A stretch of DNA of 60,676 nucleotides, counting the filler, from Asterionella formosa (lineage: Eukaryota), in NCBI GenBank assembly GCA_002256025.1. It is 8 parts of 8 records of this genome, joined end to end, with 100 filler letters (N's around TTAATTAATTAA, not from the genome) between each part and the next. Parts side by side here need not be neighbours in the genome. Positions count along the whole stretch, not along the records: positions 53,196 to 60,676 come from NKIB01012440.1; 7 more parts are not named here. One strand, 5' to 3'. The translations under genes and the position numbers were made by a program. Below the pieces are notes generated by a model. It did no database searches and was not told the origin of the DNA. It worked only from the letters and a program-made list of their open reading frames with translations. Positions 2,077 through 60,676 of this stretch are shown piece by piece (position 1 is the first letter of the stretch; the number at the start of each line of letters is the position of its first letter).

Positions 2077-2236
2077 AACATAGATGTACCGCATCATGTG
2101 TGATCCAATACGACATTTTTAGCACCGAAGTTCCCAAGATCGCGCAGAACGAAGTAAGAAATGCCTCCATCACTAACATGAAGATAGGGCATCAAAAACC
2201 AGGTTGATTATCACAACTGGCGAAAACATCAAACAC

Positions 2237-3301
2237 ATGGGCATGTTACCAAATTCAGCCGCTGTTGGGTACCTCCTGGTAGCTGCAGTTTCCATTGTTT
2301 TGTATCAGCAACGGCCTTTTGAATCTAGATTCTCAGAGATTGTCCCAATTGAGAGTGCAGTGTTGGGGGCAGTTCCGGTAGTCAATCTACTCGCTGACGA
2401 TGCTGCAACTACAATGGACTCTGGGCTCAGACAGTTTGGATTCTTCTACCTTAAAAACCATGGTGTTTCTCAAGAGCTCATCGATGAGCAATTTCGACAA
2501 AGTCACGCATTGTTTGCGCTTCCAGAAGACATCAAACGAAGTATGGCGTTTGTCCCACATCTTGACATCGGCTACCAAGGATCTGGAGATCAGGCGCTGG
2601 ATGAATCTTCCAAGTTCAAGGATACAAAAGAAGGATATCTTATGACTAACAACGCAGTCATGCAGGCTGACTTTGAATTAGATCCCGCAGACCCCTTGCA
2701 GGGATCCACACTTCACCTGCCTCCTGTGACTCTTCTTCCCAAATATGAAGCGACCTTGCGTAAATATGCTGCAGCCATGACATCAACAAATCACAAGCTC
2801 AATAAGCTATTGTTTCAAGCACTTGGATTATCTGAAAAAGATCGCTTGCAAATAGCAAAACAGCCGTTCACGGTGGTCAAGCAACTGCGGTATCAGCCTG
2901 ACGGAGCAGGAGGGACCAATGCCTCGGAACGCCTAGGTGCAGGTGCACATACCGACTGGGGATCCTTTACGATATTAGCTACGGATCAAACACCAGGTCT
3001 GCAAGTTGAATTAGATGGAGAGTGGATCAATGTACCTCCCCTGGAGGGATGCTTGATTGTAAATGCAGGTGATCAAATAAACTTTTGGACCTCCGGCATG
3101 TACAAATCAGGCAACCATCGGGTACAAACCATTTCATCCAAACCACGATACTCCACTGCCTTCTTCACGTATTTTGACTATCATGCGATGGTGGTTCCGA
3201 TTTTAGCTGGAGAAGGAGTCAAGACTAAGGATTATTTTGCCTTTAAACTGTGCCAGTCCATGCATCTTGGCAAGGAGTCTTGCGACCTCCCAGGGACATG
3301 A
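2237..3301 (+). CDS. 2-oxoglutarate/Fe(II)-dependent oxygenase (IPNS/DIOX_N family) with N-terminal hydrophobic anchor
   Basis: GFFYLKNHGVS (DIOX_N), HTD...H iron triad (GAHTDWGSFTIL; NHRV), RYS 2OG-binding motif and VNAGD. Intronless. First ATG at 2237; the ORF is open from 2204. Confidence 0.9.
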   Translation: MGMLPNSAAVGYLLVAAVSIVLYQQRPFESRFSEIVPIESAVLGAVPVVNLLADDAATTMDSGLRQFGFFYLKNHGVSQELIDEQFRQSHALFALPEDIKRSMAFVPHLDIGYQGSGDQALDESSKFKDTKEGYLMTNNAVMQADFELDPADPLQGSTLHLPPVTLLPKYEATLRKYAAAMTSTNHKLNKLLFQALGLSEKDRLQIAKQPFTVVKQLRYQPDGAGGTNASERLGAGAHTDWGSFTILATDQTPGLQVELDGEWINVPPLEGCLIVNAGDQINFWTSGMYKSGNHRVQTISSKPRYSTAFFTYFDYHAMVVPILAGEGVKTKDYFAFKLCQSMHLGKESCDLPGT

Positions 3302-10890: not shown

Positions 10891-11941
10891 CCATTTTGTC
10901 TTTGATTCTCGGAAATGATCCCTGAAGGCATCGCATTCCCCATTCCGACAGCTGTCGGAAGGAGGTGGCTTGGCGATTCATACCAAATCTTTGTCGAGGA
11001 TTACCATTTGCGTCAACATTGTTTTGATGTGATTTCAACATTGCATTTGATTTCATAGATGCCAATGCTGAATCCACAACAACTTTTTTGCCTGTATCCC
11101 TGTAAACTGTTTCAATCTGATCATAGATCGATTACCAAATTTCCATGGTGGAGTCATGTAGAACACCAGGAGCATTGAAATATGAGCAACGAATTTTTCC
11201 ATCAGGCGAAAAAAGAAACAAGTTTGTCACAAAGTGTTCATGGGTCCATCCATTGTAGAAGTTGTTCTGCTGTGTTTCATTTCCAGCCTGTTGCAGGGTC
11301 AGTTTCAGACCATCCATTGCTCCCCAACAATTTGTTATAAGTGGGTATTTCTGATTGATCATGGTTGCAAACAAGGTGGCTTCGTCTGCAGTAGGCAGTC
11401 TCACACCGGCATCTTCATGTGTCAGCAGTACTTTTACAATCATTCGCCTTGAAAACCTCAACCAAACACTCAAAGAACCATGAGTTAATCCGAAAATAAT
11501 CTGAAGAATCATATAGGAACCACGAGTCCTGGTCCATGCTAACCCAAGCGGTAGACAACTGATGGAACAGAGGTATCTTTGCCGACCTTTCTTTGTTGTT
11601 GAATTTCTAACAATGAAATCCGTATTTTTCCTACAGGGATTGAAGGAATAAAAACAAGGTTTGAACAGCTGGTGTAGGAGCTCGAAAGAAGCATGGTCAA
11701 ACCCACACGAGGTAATCAGAACATCATCATGCTTGCTGTTGAACAAAGTCCAGAATGGACTCGATAATGGATGCTGTAGTGCGTGGTGACGGATTCTGCC
11801 ACTTCTTCTTCTGACCTCATCAACAGTCAAACTTTCCCTGAACAATGGCGTCCTATTAACTGGTGGATAACACATTGCTAACAGTAGCAATGTGATCATA
11901 ATGTCATCATCATCATCAGGAGATGGGATGAAAGTCGACAT
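10890..11941 (-). pseudogene. Harbinger DDE transposase (DDE_Tnp_4/HARBI1-like) with a premature stop and 3' truncation
   Basis: CWGAMDG, FYNGW, NAPGVLHDS, VVVDSA and RQLSEWGMRCLQGSFPRIK. An in-frame TAA at 11132-11134 splits two same-frame ORFs. Confidence 0.9.
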
Positions 11942-12387
11942 GGTCAGTGACCATCGATGATGAATATATAGAACTCATGCATATAATGAACAAGAGGCGG
12001 CATAGCATACAAGAGGATGCATCGATATGAAAATTTAACTGTTGAAAATTAAAGTTAAAAATATATATAATGTCAGAGAAGTAATCTACAATATCTCTAT
12101 TATCAGAGCGCAAGGACGATATTATGTAGCAGATCACCAGAATAATTTGTGTTATAATACACACATGATATAATATTTTTTTATTATCAGAGCGCGCCCT
12201 GTGATTTCCAAGACAAAACTAGTTCATGTTATTACTACATATTTTAAAAGTTATTAAAAGTTCAAGATAAAATTGTTTTAGAGGATTAAATCATTGCGAA
12301 ATGCAACTTTCCGAAAACATAAAGTCGTGTAGTGTAAAAAATGGAAGTAAGTCTCGTTTCTTGTTTGACTGATCCTTTCCATGAAAT

Positions 12388-43210: not shown

Positions 43211-45085
43211 TGAAAAGTCACGTACAAAAACGGTGTATTATCTGAAATCGACCTCGCATCACGTTTTCCCAAAAGACCTCAAAAGAACGCGAAGTTCGCA
43301 AAAGTTCGCAAAAGACCTGAACTGACATCAAAGTATAGAAAAGGGGTAAGTCGAGTTCTCTTATTATTGAATTCCGATATATTTGATACATCCCTAACCC
43401 TATATACATCTGTATCAACGTGCAGGATTGCTCACTCTCCCACACTTGAGGGAAAACCTTTTACCTATGAAAAGGTTTGATACGACGAATGATAATTTGT
43501 TCTGTAATGTGCATAGTGCGTTGAAAAGTAACTGTACCATTGGCATGTACTTGAATAATAGTATAAGGACCTCGTCCATGATCATCCAAAGTAGTAGGAT
43601 TATCCAATAATATTAAAATCTCGTCACCCACTTTGTAATCATAAGATCGACGACGGAAATTAGCACGATGTAAACGTTCGTCAATTATCACTTGTCGACG
43701 TTGATATATTAATTGTAAATCTGTAATCAAAGGAATATTTAATATCATATCACGTTGAAAAACCCATGCTCCTGGTGAAATACGTAATATACTATGAATA
43801 GTAGCTCGAGCTGCATATGACGCAGCTGCAAAACATGTATCCACAATATTTTGGGCTTGAATTTCATTGATTGGAGGATGAGCCTTTAACATAACTCGTA
43901 GGCTATTGCTGATAGATTGATATAAATGTTCACAGATAGCATTTGCTTGCTTGTGGATTCTTGACTGTAGTAGTCACATCTTTAATTCCATTCAACATTA
44001 ACATGTGAAAGAAAGGAACACCAGTAAATTCACCTCCATTGTCATGTATACAACGTTCTGGACGGGGATATCTGGCTAACCAATCATTTTCAAATTTCAT
44101 TGCTATATATTCTGCTGTTTTGTTGGTGACACGTGAAATTTCGGCTAAATTGGTGACTGTGTCAAGACAAGTTAGAGCACGAAATTCAATCGCTTGAGCA
44201 GCCACTGTTATCTTCCATGGACCAATTAGATCCACTGCAACTTCTGACCATGGTAATAACAATGCATTCCTGGGTGGAAGTTCACCAAAACCAGCACCAG
44301 GTAATTTTGTATGTTGACATGCTTCACATATGCTTACAATATGTTCCACTTTTGCTTTTAATGTAGGGTGATAAAAATGTGTAGCAATTGTAGCATTTAA
44401 TCTTTTCATACCCACATGACTGATGATACCAATTAATAATAGGATCCAATAAAGATGTAGGAATAGCAATACACCAAGTATCTCCTGGATTCTTCACAAA
44501 ACATATTAAAAATTTAATCATGAAAATTGATAGAAGGAAATTTTAATGGATGTGTTTGTTGATTGAGAATCAATTGTATATCCAGCAATTATCGATCATG
44601 TATTAAATTATAATCCAGAGGATATTGAATATTGTCTGTCAAGATGGGATGATTAAGGAAACATGTAAGCAAAGGTTCATCATCTAATTCAATTGAAAAA
44701 GTAGAAGTGGAAGTTGATGTTGGAGATCATCTAATTCAATCGAAAAGTAGAAGTGGAAGTTGATGTTGGAGATTTCGGTCCAATATCAATATCATCTCCC
44801 ACCAAAGACTCAAGCCTCGGGAGGCGAGATATGGAATCTGCAAAAGCATTGTCAGTCCCTTTCACGTAGTGAAAAGTAGGATGATATTCTTCAATGGAAA
44901 GTCTCCATCGTAGCACACGTTGAGTATGTTAAGTATTATTAATAAGATTTCGATGATCAGTGTGAACATGTAGAACTGCGCCCAATAACATACAGCGAAA
45001 TTCTTTGAAAGTTTCTACCACAGAAAGTAATTCTTTTTCAATAGTAGCATAATTCTTTTGAGCAGCAGATAATTTGCGAGAATAA
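43211..45085 (-). mobile_element. Degenerate Ty3/Gypsy LTR retrotransposon: RNase H, integrase, PPT and 3' LTR (43211-43434)
   Basis: [27 protein letters not shown] (RNase H). H..H..CEAC zinc finger, VAVDLIGPW, IHDNGGEF and KNPQA (integrase). PPT gtgtgggagag is followed by a TG...CA bounded segment. Confidence 0.9.
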
Positions 45086-51892: not shown

Positions 51893-53195
51893 ATGAGGTC
51901 CTTACCATATCTGTAAATAGTCATACCCCTAGGTCGACCCATGACTGTATCTAAGCGTATGCAAAGTGGTCGTATTGGTGAAAGCTAATTTTACCTTTAA
52001 CTATTTTATTTCGTTGCTCATACTTTGTGGATTGGAGTACATAATAAAATTATTTTGGAAAGAAACAGACCTCGTGACGTGTAACTGCGGGGCCGCAACC
52101 TTAAAACCCTACTCGGGAGGGCCAGTTACGAGAATACTCGCAGGCAGTCTCCACCCTCGGTTGTGTCTTACCTTCAGTACCTGGTACCGGTACCTCCTAA
52201 AAACTGAGAGTCATATAAAGTTTACCCCATGTTTCGACTCAAACTATTTTAGTCAAATTTCATGGTGACAACAAATCAAGTACGTAGCTAAATATAGAAC
52301 AGGCTCTCCGCTTTCAATAGGTCTGTTTAATTAGTAATGAAGCTTCATAATTCAAGAGATATGATGTTTTTAAAGTTGATGATTATGGTTGTTTTGTATG
52401 ACTATCAATACATATTTTTTACTACGTACCTGAAGAAAATTTTATATTCAAATTCTGGTTTCAATTACCCTATTGTTCACTCTAAAGCTTTTTCCTGCCA
52501 CAATATTATTTGTCCGTTGCATCATCTACCCATTTATTATTCATTGTTTTCATTTTTTAAACCTTAAATAATAATGCGTTTGCCTTTTAACTCAAATATT
52601 ATTTCAGTTTTTGTGTCAATAATCTTACTTTCATTCGTTTTGATGATGGTTTGATTTAGATTTATATAGGGATTATTTACGTTTGTCACTAATTAGTGTT
52701 CTGCTTACATCAGGCTACTGGTTTGGTATTACTACTATGACAGATGTCAGCCAAGCGAGAATTTTTTGTTTGATTGCTTGTTTGCTTCTCCACCTTGCTC
52801 CGCTTCCGCCTCTTTGTTTCGTCGCTTCCTTCATATTTCTCCTCTCAGCCAGCCACCCTTCATACTATTCTTCCTTGCCCGAAGCATGCAAGGCAGTGCG
52901 GCTGGAATTTCAATTTCCCCCTTATGTGCCAGCACAATTGTCAACTCCAGGCCAAGGGGGGAGAATAGGGGGGATTGGACTCGCAGCAAGAACCACAGCA
53001 GTTTTGATCTCTTCTGCTGGCGCCTGCTGGTCTCCTCGGTGTGAGGTCTCTCCCAAGCGGGTAAGTATGGCTTGTCTTGTTTGTGGTACCGGGAANNNNN
53101 NNNNNNNNNNNNNNNNNNNNNNNNNNNNNNNNNNNNNNNTTAATTAATTAANNNNNNNNNNNNNNNNNNNNNNNNNNNNNNNNNNNNNNNNNNNN

Positions 53196-55690
53196 TTTGT
53201 TCTGAGAATATCGACATTGTCCATGACGACATTTATCTCGTGTACATTGAGTACTTTGCTTGATAGAAAGCAGCGTTAAATTGGTGAAGAAAGATGGTTT
53301 GGAATACTGGTCATGCAGCAGCCCACAAGAACTGAAATTTTACACATCCTGATGACCAATTTGATCAATATACTTTCGTTCCGAGAATATCGATATTCGA
53401 AATGACGGCAATGATCTCGTGTAAATAGAATACTTTGCCGAACAAAAATCAGCCTGAAGTTGGTAGAGAAAGATGGTTTGGAATTTTTGTTGTCACAGAA
53501 CTGATGATCAGTCCACATGCATCCGAAAATTTACACATTCTCATGCCTCCATTGATCAATATATATTCGTTCTGAGCAAATTGACATTGGCCATGATGAC
53601 ATTGATCTCGTGTACATTGAATACTAGGCTGGATAGAAATCAGCCTTAAAATGGTTGAGCAAGATGGTTTGGGATTTCCGCTGCAGAAGTAAACAGCAAG
53701 CACAAAAAATAATTTATACACAATCCTGATGACCAATTTAATCAATAGATGTCCGTTCTGAGAATATCGACGTTCATAATGACAGCATTGATCTCATGTA
53801 CATAGAATACTACGCTGGATAAAAATCGGCCTTCAATTGGTTAAGAAAGATGGTTTGGAATTTGTTTTGCCACAGCACTGATGATCAGTCTACAAGCAAC
53901 GAAAATTTTACTCATCCTGATGCCTCCATTGATCAATATATAGTCGTTCTGAGAATATCGACATTTTACATGACAACTTTGATCTCGTGTACATTGAGTA
54001 CTTTGCTTGATAGAAAGCAGCGTTAAATTGGTGAAGAAAGATGGTTTGGAATACTGGTCATGCAGCAGCTCACAATACCTGAAATTTTACCCATCCTGAT
54101 GACCAATTTGATCAATATATGTTCGTTTTGAGAATATCGATATTCGAAATGACGAGACTGTTCTCGTGTACATCGAATACTTTGCTGGATATAAATCGGT
54201 CTGATATTGGTGGAGAACGATGGTTTGGAATGTTTGCAATCACAGCCCTGATGATCAGCCAGTTCACAGCAAGCACCGAAATTTTATACACCATCCGGAT
54301 GACCGATTTGATCAATATATGTTCATTCTTAGAATATCGACATTTGCCATGACGGCATTGCTCTCGTAGACATCGAAAATTTTGTTGGATAAAAGTCGGC
54401 TTTAAATTGGTGGAGAAAGGTGGTTTGGAATTTTTGTTGCCACAGCACTTATGATCAGTACACAGCGAGCACCGAAAATTTACACACCTCTTGGCTGATG
54501 ACCAGTTCGATTTATATACGTTCATTCTAAGAATATCGATACTCGAAATGACGGCAGTGATCTCATGTACATTGAATACTTTCCTGGATATAAATCGGCT
54601 TTTAATTGGTGGAGCAAGATGGTTCGTAATTTCCGTTGCAACAGCACTGGTCATGCAGCGCGCAGTCCACAGCAAGCACCGAAAATTTACACACCATCCT
54701 GATGACCAATTCGATTTATATATCTTCATTCGAAGTATATCGACATTCTCTATGTCGGCATTGATCTCGTGTATATCGAATACTATTCTAGATAGAAATC
54801 AGCCTTAAAATGGTGGAGCAGGTTGGTTTGGAATTTTTGTTGCCACAGCACCACTTACAATCAGTCCACAAGCACCGAAAATTTATTTCACATCCTGATG
54901 CCTGATGAACAATTTGATCAAAATATGTTTGTTCTTAGTAAAACGACATTCATTATGACGTCATTGATGTCGTGATCATCGAATACTATGATTGATATAA
55001 ATTAGATTAAATTGGTGGAGAAAGATGGATTGGAATTTTTGTTGCCACAGCGCTGATGATCAGTCCACAAGTATCCGAAAAATTACACATCCGGATGTCT
55101 CCTTTGATCAATATATGTTCGTTCTGATCATATCAACATTCAACATGACTGCATTTATTTCGTGTACATCAAATACTATGCTAGATAGAAATCGGCCTTA
55201 AATTGGCTGGTTGAGAAGGGTTGTTTGGAATTTTTGTCGCTTCTGCACTAATGATAAAGCCACAAGTACCGAAAAATTACTCACCATCCTGATGACCAGT
55301 TTGATCAAGGTATGTTTGTTCTGAGCGAGCATATTGGCATTGATCTCGTGTAAATCGAATACTATGCTAGATAGAAATTGACAATGAATTGGTAGAAAAG
55401 ATGGATTGGAATTTTGGTTGTTAAAGCACTGGTCATCAGTCCACAGCAGACACCTAAAATTTACACATCCTGATGCCTCCTTTGGACAATATACGTTCGT
55501 TCTGAGCATATCGACATTCGACAAGAAGCCTTTGATTTCGAGTACATCAAATAATATATTAGATAGAAATCGGCATCAAATTTATTGAGAAAGAAAATGA
55601 ATTGGAATTTAGGTTGCTACAGCACTGGTCATCAGTCCACAGCAAGCACCGAAAATTTTACGCATCCTGATGACGAATTTGATCAATACT
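53196..55690. repeat. Satellite array, 13 monomers of 179-204 bp
   Basis: A gttctgagaatatcga-like anchor occurs at 53199, 53378, 53569, 53755, 53946, 54125, 54325, 54524, 54728, 54931, 55121, 55318 and 55499. Confidence 0.95.
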
Positions 55691-56439
55691 GACTAAGCAT
55701 AGACTGCGCCAGCTTTTTCTGAAGTACAATATACACAAATTTAGTACAAAATGAATGTTGGCAAGGAGGACCATCCGCGCCAGTTTTCTTAATGAAAAGC
55801 AGCTGCTGGAATGAAAGGAACAAAATATCACATTCATGGTAAAATGAAATTATTGTTATTGTTATTGTTGTCGTTTTTGTCGTCTTTTCTGATATCATGG
55901 TTGTGTTCTCGTTGTCGTTATCGCTGTCCCTGTTGTTTCTGCTGTCATTTTTCTTGTTCTTATTCTATTCTTCTTTCATTGTGGTTACTGTGGCTGTATA
56001 CCCTTCTCTTCCTTGGTGTTCCTCGCCCTGCGTTTGAACTTGAACATGCATTGTTTGATATGGAATGTAAAAATGACTTGTTTGTTAAAAACCAGCCATC
56101 ATCTGACTCTGTGAATCTTGTTCTTCACTTCCAGATAACAAGGACTCTGTTGTAGGCCGGTTACTCTGGAAGAAACAGGCAGGCATTTTTTGTTTCTCCT
56201 TGTCATCACAACCAAGGGTGCATCTGAAAATTCGAGAAAAATGTGGTAAGCAGTTAATATTTTGGGAAATGGAAACAGGTCTTTTGTCACATTGTTGTTG
56301 TTCTTTTTGTTGTTGCCCTGCACCGTTGCTCGTTTTCTTCGTCTTGTGTTCGGAACTATGTTTGATTGTTGTTGTAGTTCCTTTACCTAAATTTCGTTCT
56401 TCCTCTTACTTGTGCCGTTTGGAATTGGAAAAGTGGTCA

Positions 56440-57140
56440 GTCATGAACTTACTCTGCGAATCTTGTTCCTTTCCTACAGACAATCAATCTGTTTTTGGTA
56501 GGACAGGGTTGAACCTTGGGAATAATGAAATGCGTCCTCGTGCTCTGCCTGTGTCAGGAAGGCTATCCTGTGTGAGGTAGGCTATCAATAATTTGTTATT
56601 CGCATTGTTGAAAGGATTCCTCTGGTGCATAGGGGAAAAATATATACATGGTAAGCAAGTGCAATGTTTTCTTGCCTTCTGCTGATATTGTTTGCTGTTG
56701 CTTATTGTGGGCGGATCTCCTCTCCAATTCCCCTTCGTCTTTGTTCGGAATTGTTAGCGCAGGCATTGCCTATTTGTAATGAATTACTAGAAGAAGGGCT
56801 TGATTGTGTGCTTGTTACTTGCTGATCACGAACTTACTCTGCAAACTCTGTTCTTTGTCTACAAACAATCAATCTGTTGAGCAAGGGATTTGTTGGGAAT
56901 CAGGCGGCATGGTAAGCACAACGAAAACGATGCCTTTGTAACAATTGTTTGTTCATGAACTCACTCTGCAACCGTTGTTCACTGATTGCATACAATCAAT
57001 TTGATGAGTGCTGGGTTGGACATTGGGGAACATGGTAAGGAGCACAACAGAACCGAAATCATGGCTTCGCAACTTATGCTTTCTCATCAACTCACTCTGC
57101 AAATGTTGCCCTATTTCTACAACAGACAATTAATCTGAGC
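56440..57140 (-). repeat. Four related cassettes resembling 21-nt micro-exons with splice sites
   Basis: Pattern on the minus strand is (g)attg/aattgt..tgtag|21 nt ending gcaga|gt(a/g)agtt, at 57096-57116, 56965-56985, 56838-56858 and 56453-56473. Confidence 0.6.
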
Positions 57141-57813
57141 AATGAGAATGAGCAGCCGGCTCATTTGCTATGAATTGATCTACCGATAGTAGCAACAGGG
57201 ACTCCTGCAAGTATGAGTAGCCAGGCAGCAATCTTGGGAGTCGTTACATCGTCCAGCTGCAAGAATGAACATCAATTGCTTGTCGTATTGGTTTGAGAAT
57301 TAAGTTCCATAGAAAGTATCAATATGAACTATATAGCGAAGCGATTAATTTGATTGATTTTGCGATCATTGTAGCTAGAATTTATATTAAACATTGATTG
57401 GTTACACATAATTATTTGTTTGACTAAAATATATATTTGTTTAACCTTGAGGTATTAATGTGATCAAAGTAAAGATAAAATGGGAGCAAACTAACAGAAT
57501 TCATGGTAGGCAGAGTGAAGAATATTTGTGAACGGAAATGTTGCAAATTGTAGAGAAAAGTACCGTATTATACAGATTATTACTGAACAAATTTTTCTTC
57601 GTGTTGCCAGAAAATATTGTCAGTTGGCCCCAAAAATTATGTGTGTTTCTAAAATAATTATGGAAGTTGTCGAAACTATTTTAGTTCACTCCATTCAAAT
57701 ATATTGTATGATGCATCATATTTTTTCTGTGATGTCATACCCTTAAATTATGTACGTAGATAAATTCATCATATTGGGCCACCCAAATAATTAATTTGGG
57801 TGATCATATTTGA

Positions 57814-60668
57814 CTAGCGTTTTTTTGTGACGGCTGTACCAGTAATCGGCGATGTAGATGTATGCTTGGTTGGAGACACAGGTTTCAGACCAGGTTGGAC
57901 ATGATCCTGCTGGAGGGAGATAGAATGTGGGAGCTTGATGATAGACCAGGTTTCACCTAAAGTTTCATCTGGGTTCCTATCTCGCTGGAGGGTAAGATGT
58001 GGACCCTTCTCCACCTGCTTATGATCCTTGCTGTTGACCCCAAGCAACTTCATATTCGATTTTTCAACAGACTTGAGAAATTCCAAGGAAGGACCAGCAT
58101 CTGAGGCATCCTCTGAGGCGATGGAAATATCTTCTTCGTCTTTGCCTTGTCGATTAGCCTTGGTGGTGTGCTTTGTTAAGGGCACAGGTTTCTGGGCAGG
58201 GTATAATACTGGAGGTGGTCAATGAAAAAAAACCACAGTGGCATTGTCACTGTTTTCCTTACGCGCATTTTTCTTTGATTGAGCTGCTGATTTAAGAACT
58301 GAATCATGAGTATTTGAATCATAATTCTTGGTGCTCCGGTCCAATCTCAAGTGGACATGATTTTTGACTGGACTAGGAATATTGTTAAGCAAAGCTGGTG
58401 GAGTTGGGACCGCAGCTTCTTTGGTCTTTACAATGTTCTTTTCCTTGGAAGAAATCAAGATTTCTTGCTCGATGTTTTTACGCCCCTCATTGTTAATGTT
58501 GGTCAAAGGTGGTGAAGGTAGGACCTGAACATCAACAATTCTCTTGGAGTCAAACCTGTTGGAAACGCCAAAAGTAGGGTCTTGAAAACTGTGCATCCAC
58601 TTTGCACTCTCTTCCACACCCTTGCTCCCAGTGAGAGGCCACTTGCTATTATTTTTCGTCAAATCTTCATTTGATGATGGGGACAACACTCGTACAGCAT
58701 ACTGCAAGCACTCCTGACGAAATTGGTGGTAGGCTGCATCAGCCTGATAGAGCAAGCTTGAAATATTTGCTGTGTTAGCTAGTGACACCCTCCTTGAAAC
58801 TGCCTTGAGAGCTGAACCTTTGAGTGTTGATTGCTCGGCGTGAAGCAAGAGTTCCTGCTAGGTCAAATTGTTTCGACCTTATCCCATGATGGGACAGGAT
58901 GAGTTCCAGCTTGATCACATTCTGGTTACTTTTGTCGAAATCGACAACAAAGGGTAGTTCAGGATTGACACAATGGAGGAGGTCATTTTTTGAGGCAGTT
59001 GCCTTTGACTCACTACTATCATCATCTGTTAGACTAATCACATCATTGACCTTGGAAGAAATTCGTGATTTCTTGGAAATAGAACTAGAAGGGGGCCAGG
59101 TACTAGCCTTCGATCGTTTCTTGATTATTGGCACAGCAACTTGTTTGGACTCCGGTTTGGAGACCATTTTGCTGGAGGTGGCAGCTGATTTGGAATCCGG
59201 TTTGGATACTTTTTTCCTGTTCATGGCAGCTGGTCTAGAGTTTGGTTTCGATACTTTTTTGCTGGGAATCGAGGCTGGTTTGCAGTCCGATTCAGATTCT
59301 TTGTAAGGATTAGTTACAGGCATTGATGCAACATCTCGGCTCCTGGCTGTTTATGCAGTGTTGTAAGCACCTGCCTTGGATGTGACGGCTTTGGTAGCAT
59401 CATGCTTGGGAGTAGCCTTGGCAGAAGGCTTGAGTGCAACAGCTTTCGCAGCAACAGTTCTTGGAGGAGCCTTCATCCTCGTCTTTGCAGCTTTCTTTGG
59501 AACACTCTTCTGCAAGAACACTCGCGATTGGGCCTGTGTTGATCCTGCTGTAACCATAGAAGCAGCCTTCTGTAAAGTGCCTCTCTTCGCACGCTTTCTG
59601 AGCGCATAAGAAGGAGCTTCCAAGCGGGATACTCTGATCCCATAGCTGCCTTTGCATTCATCACCTCTGTCAGGCGACGAATGCAAAAAAAGAAATGTGT
59701 GAATGAATAAATGAATATGAATACAGCACATATAGTAAACGAACGTACCTTTTGGTTGCTTGTAGATGAAACCCCCAATGGGAAGAACCATCGAGTACAT
59801 ATAGGCTGGCATACCGCGGAATCAGTATGTACTTGGGCGAGACGAAGTGGTTGATGCGGATGAGTTCAACATGCTCTTCCAATTGATGATGAGTGGCTGA
59901 AAGAAGACTCCCAGCTATATTTGTTCGCAAACACACGATAGGAAAGGTCTCGAAATTTACTGGTTCTGGCATATCAGGTCCATATTTTTATGTATCAAGA
60001 TCGCCATTGTTCTTGTTCCTCTCATCATGAAGAAGGTTTTCAAGAGGATGATTGATCCTTTCCATCCAAGGAATAGGATTGCAGTGTATAAATCCCAAGG
60101 ATTTATACCACTCAACCGCATTGCCCAGCACCTGCGCAAAAACTGGTTGATGTTGGGAAGGACATCCTGGGAATGCACAGTTCCAGGCCTCCTCATCAAT
60201 ACGAAGACGAGTAGCAGCTTGGATCAGCTATTGACCCATTCCACGTTTTTTGTACTTGTGCAAATCATGGGTTGAGTTATGATTACTTGTCACCAGATAG
60301 TGAATACAAGCAATAGGAGTTGGAAACTCTTTTTGCTCCACAACAACCATAGCTACGGGCTTGAACTTCTTCTCCAAGTTCTCCCTCTCTTCAATGGTAA
60401 TGACGAAGTTGCCATGAAGCTTCTTCTGGAGCTGATTTGCGTATAGAGCTTGGTTGGTAACAACGGAATTCCAATCGTTACCAAAAGATTTGGACAAGAA
60501 AGTCATAATCTCATTGATCTCCAAAGGGATTTTAGAGGTGGCGAAGGTGTCAAGGGGAATTTGGGTGATCCTAACTTTCCACTTGTACTGCCTATCATCA
60601 GCATTAGGGTCATGTACATTGATGCAACCAATGTACAATCTTCCTAAAGCCTCGAGACTTTTGCTCAC
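57814..60668 (-). pseudogene. Long decayed gene: GNAT-acetyltransferase-like region followed by a K/S/A-rich low-complexity region
   Basis: The frame reads through stops at 60228, ~59988 and 59351. KKRGMGQ*LIQ resembles GNAT motif A and NAVEWYKSLGF resembles motif B. Probable intron ~59680-59748; frameshifts near 58850 and 58225. Confidence 0.5.
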
Positions 60669-60676
60669 ATGAGTGA

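Follow-up and report, generated by a model that had tools for sequence, protein, structure and literature searches.

Tandem exon–intron-like modules near the 5′ end of a probable Plavaka-type transposon in the diatom Asterionella formosa

Introduction

The En/Spm (CACTA) transposon of maize has a 5′ subterminal promoter, an untranslated first exon and an alternatively spliced TnpA/TnpD transcript. Here we describe an array of short repeats with splice-site-like flanks in a stretch of 60,676 nucleotides (filler letters included; hereinafter the window) from the genome assembly GCA_002256025.1 of the freshwater diatom Asterionella formosa, in which positions 53,196 to 60,676 come from record NKIB01012440.1. 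The array very probably belongs to the subterminal region at the 5′ end of a Plavaka-type DNA transposon, and the interpretation that we favor, with roughly even confidence, is that it consists of tandemly multiplied exon–intron modules of a mostly non-coding leader. The locus resembles maize En/Spm in having an inward-facing promoter-like block a few hundred nucleotides from the element end, candidate untranslated exons and a repetitive subterminal region; unlike in maize, the repeats look like whole exon–intron modules rather than 12-bp protein-binding motifs, and the splicing is predicted.

According to passages of a 2025 survey, PlavakaB elements have the termini 5′-CATCA..TGATG-3′ and target duplications of 2-3 bp, and PlavakaA elements have the termini 5′-TGT..ACA-3′ (PMC12730594). 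The diatom unit is similar to the elements described there in the PF18759 transposase located downstream of it in relatives, in a terminus that starts with CATC and in several unrelated insertion contexts. It differs from the described families, which are fungal, in the fifth terminal base, which is T (CATCT vs CATCA), and the Plavaka description in these passages includes no tandem exon–intron-like module leader of the kind found here. A literature search found nothing on Plavaka elements in diatoms or on micro-exons in diatoms. The initial annotation of the locus had invoked a different model, the micro-exon genes (MEGs) of schistosomes, which belong to the host, encode secreted proteins and have exons of 3-81 bp separated by long introns (up to 5 kb) (PMC10526429).

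The repeated modules

The initial annotation had placed four 21-nt cassettes on the minus strand. These positions and the exact length were recovered, together with a fifth, decayed copy that had been overlooked:

57116-57096, minus strand: cassette 1, 21 nt, with a TAG acceptor-like flank and a GTGAGT donor-like flank
56985-56965, minus strand: cassette 2, 21 nt, with CAA in the acceptor place, an intact GTGAGT and a stop in frame 1
56858-56838, minus strand: cassette 3, 21 nt, with TAG and GTAAGT
56473-56453, minus strand: cassette 4, 21 nt, with TAG and GTAAGT
56128-56108, minus strand: cassette 5, decayed copy, with GAA in the acceptor position and the donor GTCAGA (GTAAGA in the L022 group of relatives described below)

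Cassettes 1-4 are the cores of a family of 59-nt direct repeats (D1; 63-76% identity to the reference copy), the copies of which are spaced by 385, 127 and 131 nt. The module, about 130 nt long, is present in four tandem copies and one decayed copy, and cassette 5 shows 76% identity to the cassette 4 module (repeat family D5). When the window was searched for the donor-side pattern ACTYACTCTGYRAA with at most one mismatch, four matches were found in the locus and one elsewhere, compared to 0.16 expected by chance, and in 100 shuffles a count of five was never attained.

The paralogous modules are old, with a mean column identity of 53% (alignment A1), and conservation is distributed unevenly along them. 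Across the four modules, 9 of the 12 positions at donor +1 to +12 are invariant; the core has 6 invariant bases among its last 9 and 4 among its first 12, and the distal intron has just 2 of 35 and 2 of 48. Conservation is highest from the 3′ part of the cassette into the donor (GCAGA/GTRAGTT; here and below, a slash within a motif marks the putative splice junction). The original observation of conserved flanks around a variable core holds among the paralogous modules.

Relatives of the array were sought in metagenome contigs with a pattern that imposed no fixed cassette length (gap 10-40). The scan yielded 26 loci, namely 18 chance matches and eight true relatives (L005, L007, L008, L013, L018, L022, L025 and L026), which show 81-93% identity over up to 3.6 kb. 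Counting for each cassette just the sequences that cover it, the cassettes of the relatives are as follows:

Cassette 1: 21 nt in two relatives and 27 nt in four (L005, L007, L013, L026), with TAG and GTGAGT in 6 of 6
Cassette 2: 21 nt in 7 of 7, with CAA at -15 and -1 and the frame-1 stop in 7 of 7, the GT being kept
Cassette 3: 21 nt, TAG and GTAAGT in 8 of 8
Cassette 4: 21 nt and TAG in 5 of 5, with GTAAGT, or GTATGT in L026 and L018

Cassette 1 is either 21 or 27 nt long and therefore always a multiple of 3. The retention of the 21-nt length and of AG/GT in homologs, which had been proposed as a check, is borne out with this one variation in cassette 1; it carries little weight because the relatives are so close that introns match exons in conservation. 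The cassette cores are in fact more variable among relatives than the introns (19 of 90 vs 96 of 754 variable columns in introns 2-5). The number of modules differs between copies: L005 has a 733-nt deletion (window 56819-56086 missing) that removes cassettes 4 and 5 and has a short AACAA-type homology at the junction, and one contig from the RNA library X1 (see below) lacks 129 nt, about one module (joint 56783>56913).

Such variation in module number, along with the closeness of the relatives (81-93%), among which everything is conserved about equally, would be compatible with a functionless tandem duplication of DNA that happens to hold AG and GT, the rest being shared ancestry and chance. 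We consider this improbable because neutral decay does not give the pattern seen in the old modules, which at 53% mean column identity have kept 9 of 12 donor positions vs 2 of 48 downstream.

Transposon context

The modules lie within a mobile unit, with the following features in it and next to it:

55686-57860, minus strand: shared unit of 2.2 kb, boundaries defined by homology, single copy within the window
57848-57860, minus strand: 5′ terminus of the mobile unit, 5′-CATCTACATCGCC read downward from 57860
57780-57802, minus strand: perfect hairpin of 9 bp some 60 nt in from the terminus, CACCCAAAT / ATTTGGGTG, followed by CTAG
53196-55688, strand unassigned: tandem array of ~190-nt units, seen as staggered self-matches at ~190-nt steps

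The unit starts with 5′-CATCTACA. L005, L022 and L025 match the window up to 57860/57861, where the homology ends abruptly, and at this boundary the four 5′ flanks (those of the window, L005, L022 and L025) are mutually unrelated; L022 and L025 show 99.5% identity up to the boundary and are unrelated beyond it. The copies are thus inserted at unrelated sites, as befits a Plavaka-type DNA transposon. The L005 flank reads as retroelement-like (the end of a copia-type polymerase), Pfam giving merely a sub-threshold match to Pilin_GH, and the L022 flank yielded weak retroelement leads (Atlas score 0.86) and no Pfam match. In L022 the 5′ end is CATTT; the window, like L005 and L025, has CATCT, which shares 4 of its 5 bases with the PlavakaB end.

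The other end of the homology lies at 55686 for L022, L025 and L007, where the unit runs into sequence different from that of the window. In L022 and L025, about 0.8 kb after the unit and on the same strand, there are open reading frames (ORFs), the second of which is a Plavaka transposase: the region L022:3-653 (minus), on the strand of the unit, matches Pfam PF18759 with 46.3 bits (cut-off 26.3; E 4.3e-12), and L025 carries the same transposase ORF with 99% identity to L022. The transposase is found in the relatives only, the window copy having none. The sharp boundary, the CATCT start and the transposase in relatives make it very probable that the array belongs to the 5′ subterminal region, 2.2 kb long, of a Plavaka-type transposon. 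In the window copy, the place of the transposase region is taken by the ~190-nt array (~13 units), which starts exactly at the end of the shared unit; the same array is present in L005, L018 and L026 and absent, with the transposase region in its place, in L022, L025 and L007. The contigs of library X1 occur in many variants (261, in three identity classes of 48, 90 and 123), which fits with a multi-copy family.

The hairpin near the terminus folds with -9.7 kcal/mol (z -3.3; none of 200 shuffles as good), and the surrounding segment 57818-57771 contains zero variable columns among the relatives. A Helitron end, for which a hairpin followed by CTAG near 57815 might be taken, was ruled out given that the homology among relatives continues for another 45 nt, to 57860.

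Several further observations concern the element and its surroundings. The ORF-like repeats in the ~190-nt array end in ...IDQIGHQD(V/G)* (here and below, an asterisk denotes a stop), and directly beyond this array there is a run of N at about 53090-53200, so that the far end of the element is unreadable in the window. On the other side, the ORF apparently hit by the insertion (57861-58221) contains a tandem duplication of ~306 nt, with 57860-57894 resembling 58166-58200, and is closed by a stop in frame (58219-58221). In one contig of the RNA libraries, 58149 is connected back to 57861 through 38 additional letters; this contig looks like an element-free variant. In L022, an in-frame TAG at L022:654-656 (minus) between the two transposase ORFs ends a 45-nt stretch that terminates in CCTCTTTAG, and could represent a tiny intron or mark a dead copy.

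Candidate leader and splice signals

Upstream of the cassettes, the unit contains additional segments that could belong to a spliced leader, and the modules contain paired acceptor candidates and a recurrent upstream motif:

57437-57575, minus strand: conserved block with a TATA-like TATAATA (57572-57566) and the donor-like TCT/GTTAGT and CAAG/GTTAAA
57184-57256, minus strand: candidate exon 2 (exon B), with the acceptor-like TTCATTCTTGCAG/ (AG 57258-57257) and the donor-like /GTAGAT (57183)
57117-57137, minus strand: acceptor region of cassette 1, with two candidate acceptors, CAG 57137-57135 and TAG 57119-57117
57039-57031, 56916-56908 and 56655-56647, minus strand: CTTACCATG motif, recurrent upstream of modules
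57510-57502, 56250-56242 and 55843-55835, minus strand: variants of CTTACCATG

Between 57544 and 57437, the fraction of variable columns among relatives is 0.00-0.08, and the block 57575-57437 could be a promoter with a first non-coding exon (~57540-57444). A start codon at 57504, with a first coding exon, was ruled out because all five relatives that cover the position have ATT. The first candidate intron would measure 67 nt if the TAG acceptor is used; the four introns of conserved genes in the window that were checked by eye measure 64-76 nt, with the donors GTATGT, GTGAGC, GTAAGA and GTATGC and YAG acceptors. The cassette acceptor tctgtag is identical to the acceptor of a genuine intron in the ribonucleotide reductase gene of the window. 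The relatives show indels of -3 and +3 in exon B, and L005 has +4.

On the strand of the transposase, each module presents a strong donor-like GCAGA/GTRAGTT, one or two YAG behind a T-rich stretch and, further upstream, a motif of the yUnAy type; all copies of the motif are direct and lie on that strand. Three AGs precede each donor, namely a CAG at -36 (-39 in cassette 1), the TAG at -21 and a CAG at -1 (TTGCAG/A/GT). The first of these, a second candidate acceptor upstream of each TAG at a distance of 15 nt (18 nt for cassette 1), is found at 56876-56874 before cassette 3 and at 56491-56489 before cassette 4; it is broken (CAA) in cassette 2 only, as is the TAG position of that cassette. Cassette 2 has accordingly lost the first two AGs and retained the third along with a perfect donor, and an AG 4 nt inside it (aatcAG/) would yield a 17-nt exon. 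If, as we infer, the splice signals are used, any of the three AGs might serve as the acceptor: the exon would comprise 36, 21 or 1 nt depending on the branch point, for which the candidates are CTTAC ~55 nt upstream and CTCA ~19 nt upstream. The CTTACCATG motif, all copies of which within the unit are on the minus strand, is kept among paralogs and relatives, and might function in a branch-point-like manner.

On the plus strand, the same motif reads CATG/GTAAG, which raises the question of whether the relevant transcript might instead run outward through the terminus, using CATG/GTAAG donors and the pyrimidine tracts of the cassette complements as acceptors. Read on the plus strand, six (C/T)TACCATG-like motifs in the unit give CATGGTAAG or GTAGG; in complement, cassette 4 makes a good acceptor (TTGTTCCTTTCCTACAG/) and cassette 1 gives CAACAG/. 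However, the acceptor AG is present in just 2 of the 4 modules, cassettes 2 and 3 reading CAA, and the implied exons are unequal (26-47 nt); moreover, the minus-strand donors are the best-conserved block, and both the promoter-like block and the transposase point in the minus direction. A plus-strand transcript of this kind is, in our view, very unlikely.

Another possibility is that the modules are subterminal repeats acting as DNA sites, for instance transposase-binding motifs, and that their likeness to splice sites is coincidental. En/Spm-type elements have repeated subterminal motifs that are bound by TnpA, and the array likewise lies within the subterminal region of a CACTA-related element; in addition, the blocks are kept among paralogs, cassette 2 retains them without the AGs, and no spliced RNA was seen in the four libraries, the contigs of which are DNA-like. 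Such sites would, however, be represented by only 4-5 copies, all direct, 127-385 nt apart and 740-1750 nt from the end, with no copy inverted or close to the terminus. Much coincidence would also be required, given that the best-conserved block is exactly a U1-type GTRAGT after AGA, that a YAG is fixed 21 nt upstream, and that a yUnAy motif and a C/T-rich stretch lie further up. We regard the DNA-site explanation as rather unlikely. Rfam gave 0 matches on 53000-58300.

Coding potential of the cassettes

The translations NRATFA, Q*TTVA, QRTEFA and KGTRFA given in the initial annotation were obtained again in frame 1. The coincidence of the broken acceptor and the stop in a single copy, cassette 2, was confirmed and extends to 7 of 7 relatives; its significance depends on the chosen frame because frame 2 (IGQHLQ, SEQRLQ, KEQSLQ, KEQDSQ and EEQDSQ in cassettes 1-5) is open in all five copies. 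The 15-nt stretch between CAG and TAG, ATTGATTGTYTGTAG, reads LIVCR only in frame 1.

Taken at face value, these features would allow a small protein-coding mini-exon gene carried by the transposon, starting at ATG 57272, comprising cassettes 1, 3 and 4 and skipping cassette 2, with exons of 21 nt (NRATFA-type heptads) or of 36-39 nt if the upstream CAG were used (12-residue LIVCR..FAE repeats). The ORF from ATG 57272 (MFILAAGRC..) has 30 codons and is Cys-rich, with six Cys in 30 residues. The ATG is kept wherever a relative covers it (5 of 5), the phase of exon B agrees with that of the frame-1 cassettes, and the alternative exon-B frame is stopped in L022 and L025; frame 2 (IGQHLQ...) was ruled out as the coding frame for exon B on account of this stop and for want of an ATG. 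The six Cys are kept in the window and relatives through a compensating R>C change plus the loss of one TGC, the indels in exon B and cassette 1 are -3, +3, +3, +3 and one +4 (5 of 15 in introns are multiples of 3), and the differences within ATTGATTGTYTGTAG are mostly synonymous at third positions (TTA and TTG; GTC, GTT and GTA; TGT and TGC; AGA and AGG). Models that skip cassette 2, which holds a stop and broken acceptors in 7 of 7 relatives, are open for 94-115 codons in 4 of 4 sequences tested.

Nevertheless, several observations speak against such a gene. A profile search against 1.84 billion representative proteins gave 0 matches at E<=0.001, the 29-position profile having low power; the window type and the L022 type do not share a frame over the C-terminal 45-60 residues; and by inspection the N-terminus is not signal-peptide-like (MFILAAG followed by a Cys-rich part, with no hydrophobic segment). 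Changes in the cores are spread evenly over codon positions (4 first-position, 3 second-position and 3 third-position changes), the cores evolve faster than the introns, and several of the synonymous-looking changes are C/T swaps that would be equally possible in a pyrimidine tract. Finally, ATG 57272, the only conserved ATG, is itself part of the pyrimidine tract that belongs to the acceptor-like site at 57257, which makes the ORF and the spliced leader mutually exclusive. We consider a protein-coding mini-exon gene of the element an improbable alternative, if somewhat less so than functionless duplication.

These findings also bear on the proposal that the locus is a host micro-exon gene for variant heptapeptides analogous to the schistosome MEGs. 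In common with the MEGs (PMC10526429), the array has short symmetric cassettes (21 or 27 nt), greater variation in the cores than around them and one copy that would need skipping; it differs from them in its introns of 106-364 nt, its location in a transposon and the lack of a signal peptide or protein-level conservation. With the locus in a transposon end and protein-level support absent, the comparison is not supported, and we abandon the host-gene proposal.

RNA data

Contigs of four metatranscriptome runs contain parts of the stretch (X1-X4; shares 0.27-0.11). Among the 312 contigs, four joints are listed, none of which is at a cassette border or has GT..AG or CT..AC ends: skips of 129 nt and 56 nt (with TT..GG and TG..GC ends), a 64-nt skip (GG..CA) and a tandem-repeat rearrangement in the upstream ORF. 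The RNA-library contigs also span intergenic DNA and an intron-like stretch of the neighboring ORF, and may be DNA carry-over. Because the coverage extends to intergenic DNA, colinear contigs settle neither splicing nor its absence.

A possible multi-intron leader of the transposon transcript

We return here to the interpretation of the modules as parts of a transposon leader. Under this scenario, the modules, found 740-1400 nt in from the 5′ terminus of a cut-and-paste transposon of the Plavaka type (CACTA/EnSpm-related), would have arisen by tandem duplication of an exon–intron unit and, combined with the conserved first exon and exon B, would give the transposon transcript a leader with multiple introns and essentially no coding content. 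In autonomous relatives, the transposase ORF follows the 2.2-kb unit on its strand at a distance of ~0.8 kb, and the leader would presumably serve the transposase gene; in the window copy, the place of the transposase is occupied by the satellite-like array.

A number of observations weigh against this interpretation. No spliced contig was found across the array among the 312 contigs of the four RNA libraries, which behave like DNA, and unspliced contigs cross the candidate introns (X2 record 9, 56363-57075; X3 records 17-20, 56330-57227; X4 record 27, 56794-57166). Cassette 2 lacks both upstream AGs, and its perfect donor is then unexpected under a pure exon model; no acceptor was found in L022 just upstream of the transposase ATG; the plus strand, too, carries GTAAG donor-like motifs; and when the window was searched for a transposase and for the terminal 150 nt in inverted orientation, the matches were at chance level only. 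The orthologous conservation of GT and AG is of little weight given that close relatives conserve introns like exons.

It is tempting to go one step further and to speculate that the Plavaka element has multiplied a mini-exon-plus-intron module, to 3 to 5 copies depending on the element copy. Its transcript would carry a series of short, efficiently recognized introns ahead of the transposase, and these could raise expression or help the RNA to evade silencing. In the latter case, the RNA would resemble a spliced host message and avoid the silencing of intronless or foreign transcripts. The number of modules would act as a fast-evolving dial, and the dead cassette 2 along with the paired CAG and TAG 15 nt apart would give rise to alternative leader forms. 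This extension is tentative and, on present evidence, we think it unlikely.

If the modules are spliced, they would represent a transposon that builds a leader by tandem multiplication of an exon–intron unit, linking the origin of introns and micro-exons by duplication with the tuning or protection by a transposon of its own expression. If they are not, the locus would be an ordinary subterminal repeat region. In either case, such arrays can pass for exotic host genes in genome annotation, and the combination of a sharp homology boundary with a CATC terminus provides for simple recognition of Plavaka-type ends in diatom assemblies.

Other features of the window

Remains of other mobile elements were noticed elsewhere in the window:

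43933-44493, minus strand: integrase zinc-finger and rve domains, within 43461-44493
11132-11974, minus strand: DDE_Tnp_4 fragment

In addition, an ORF at 2177-3301 contains 2OG-Fe(II) oxygenase domains (PF03171 and PF14226).

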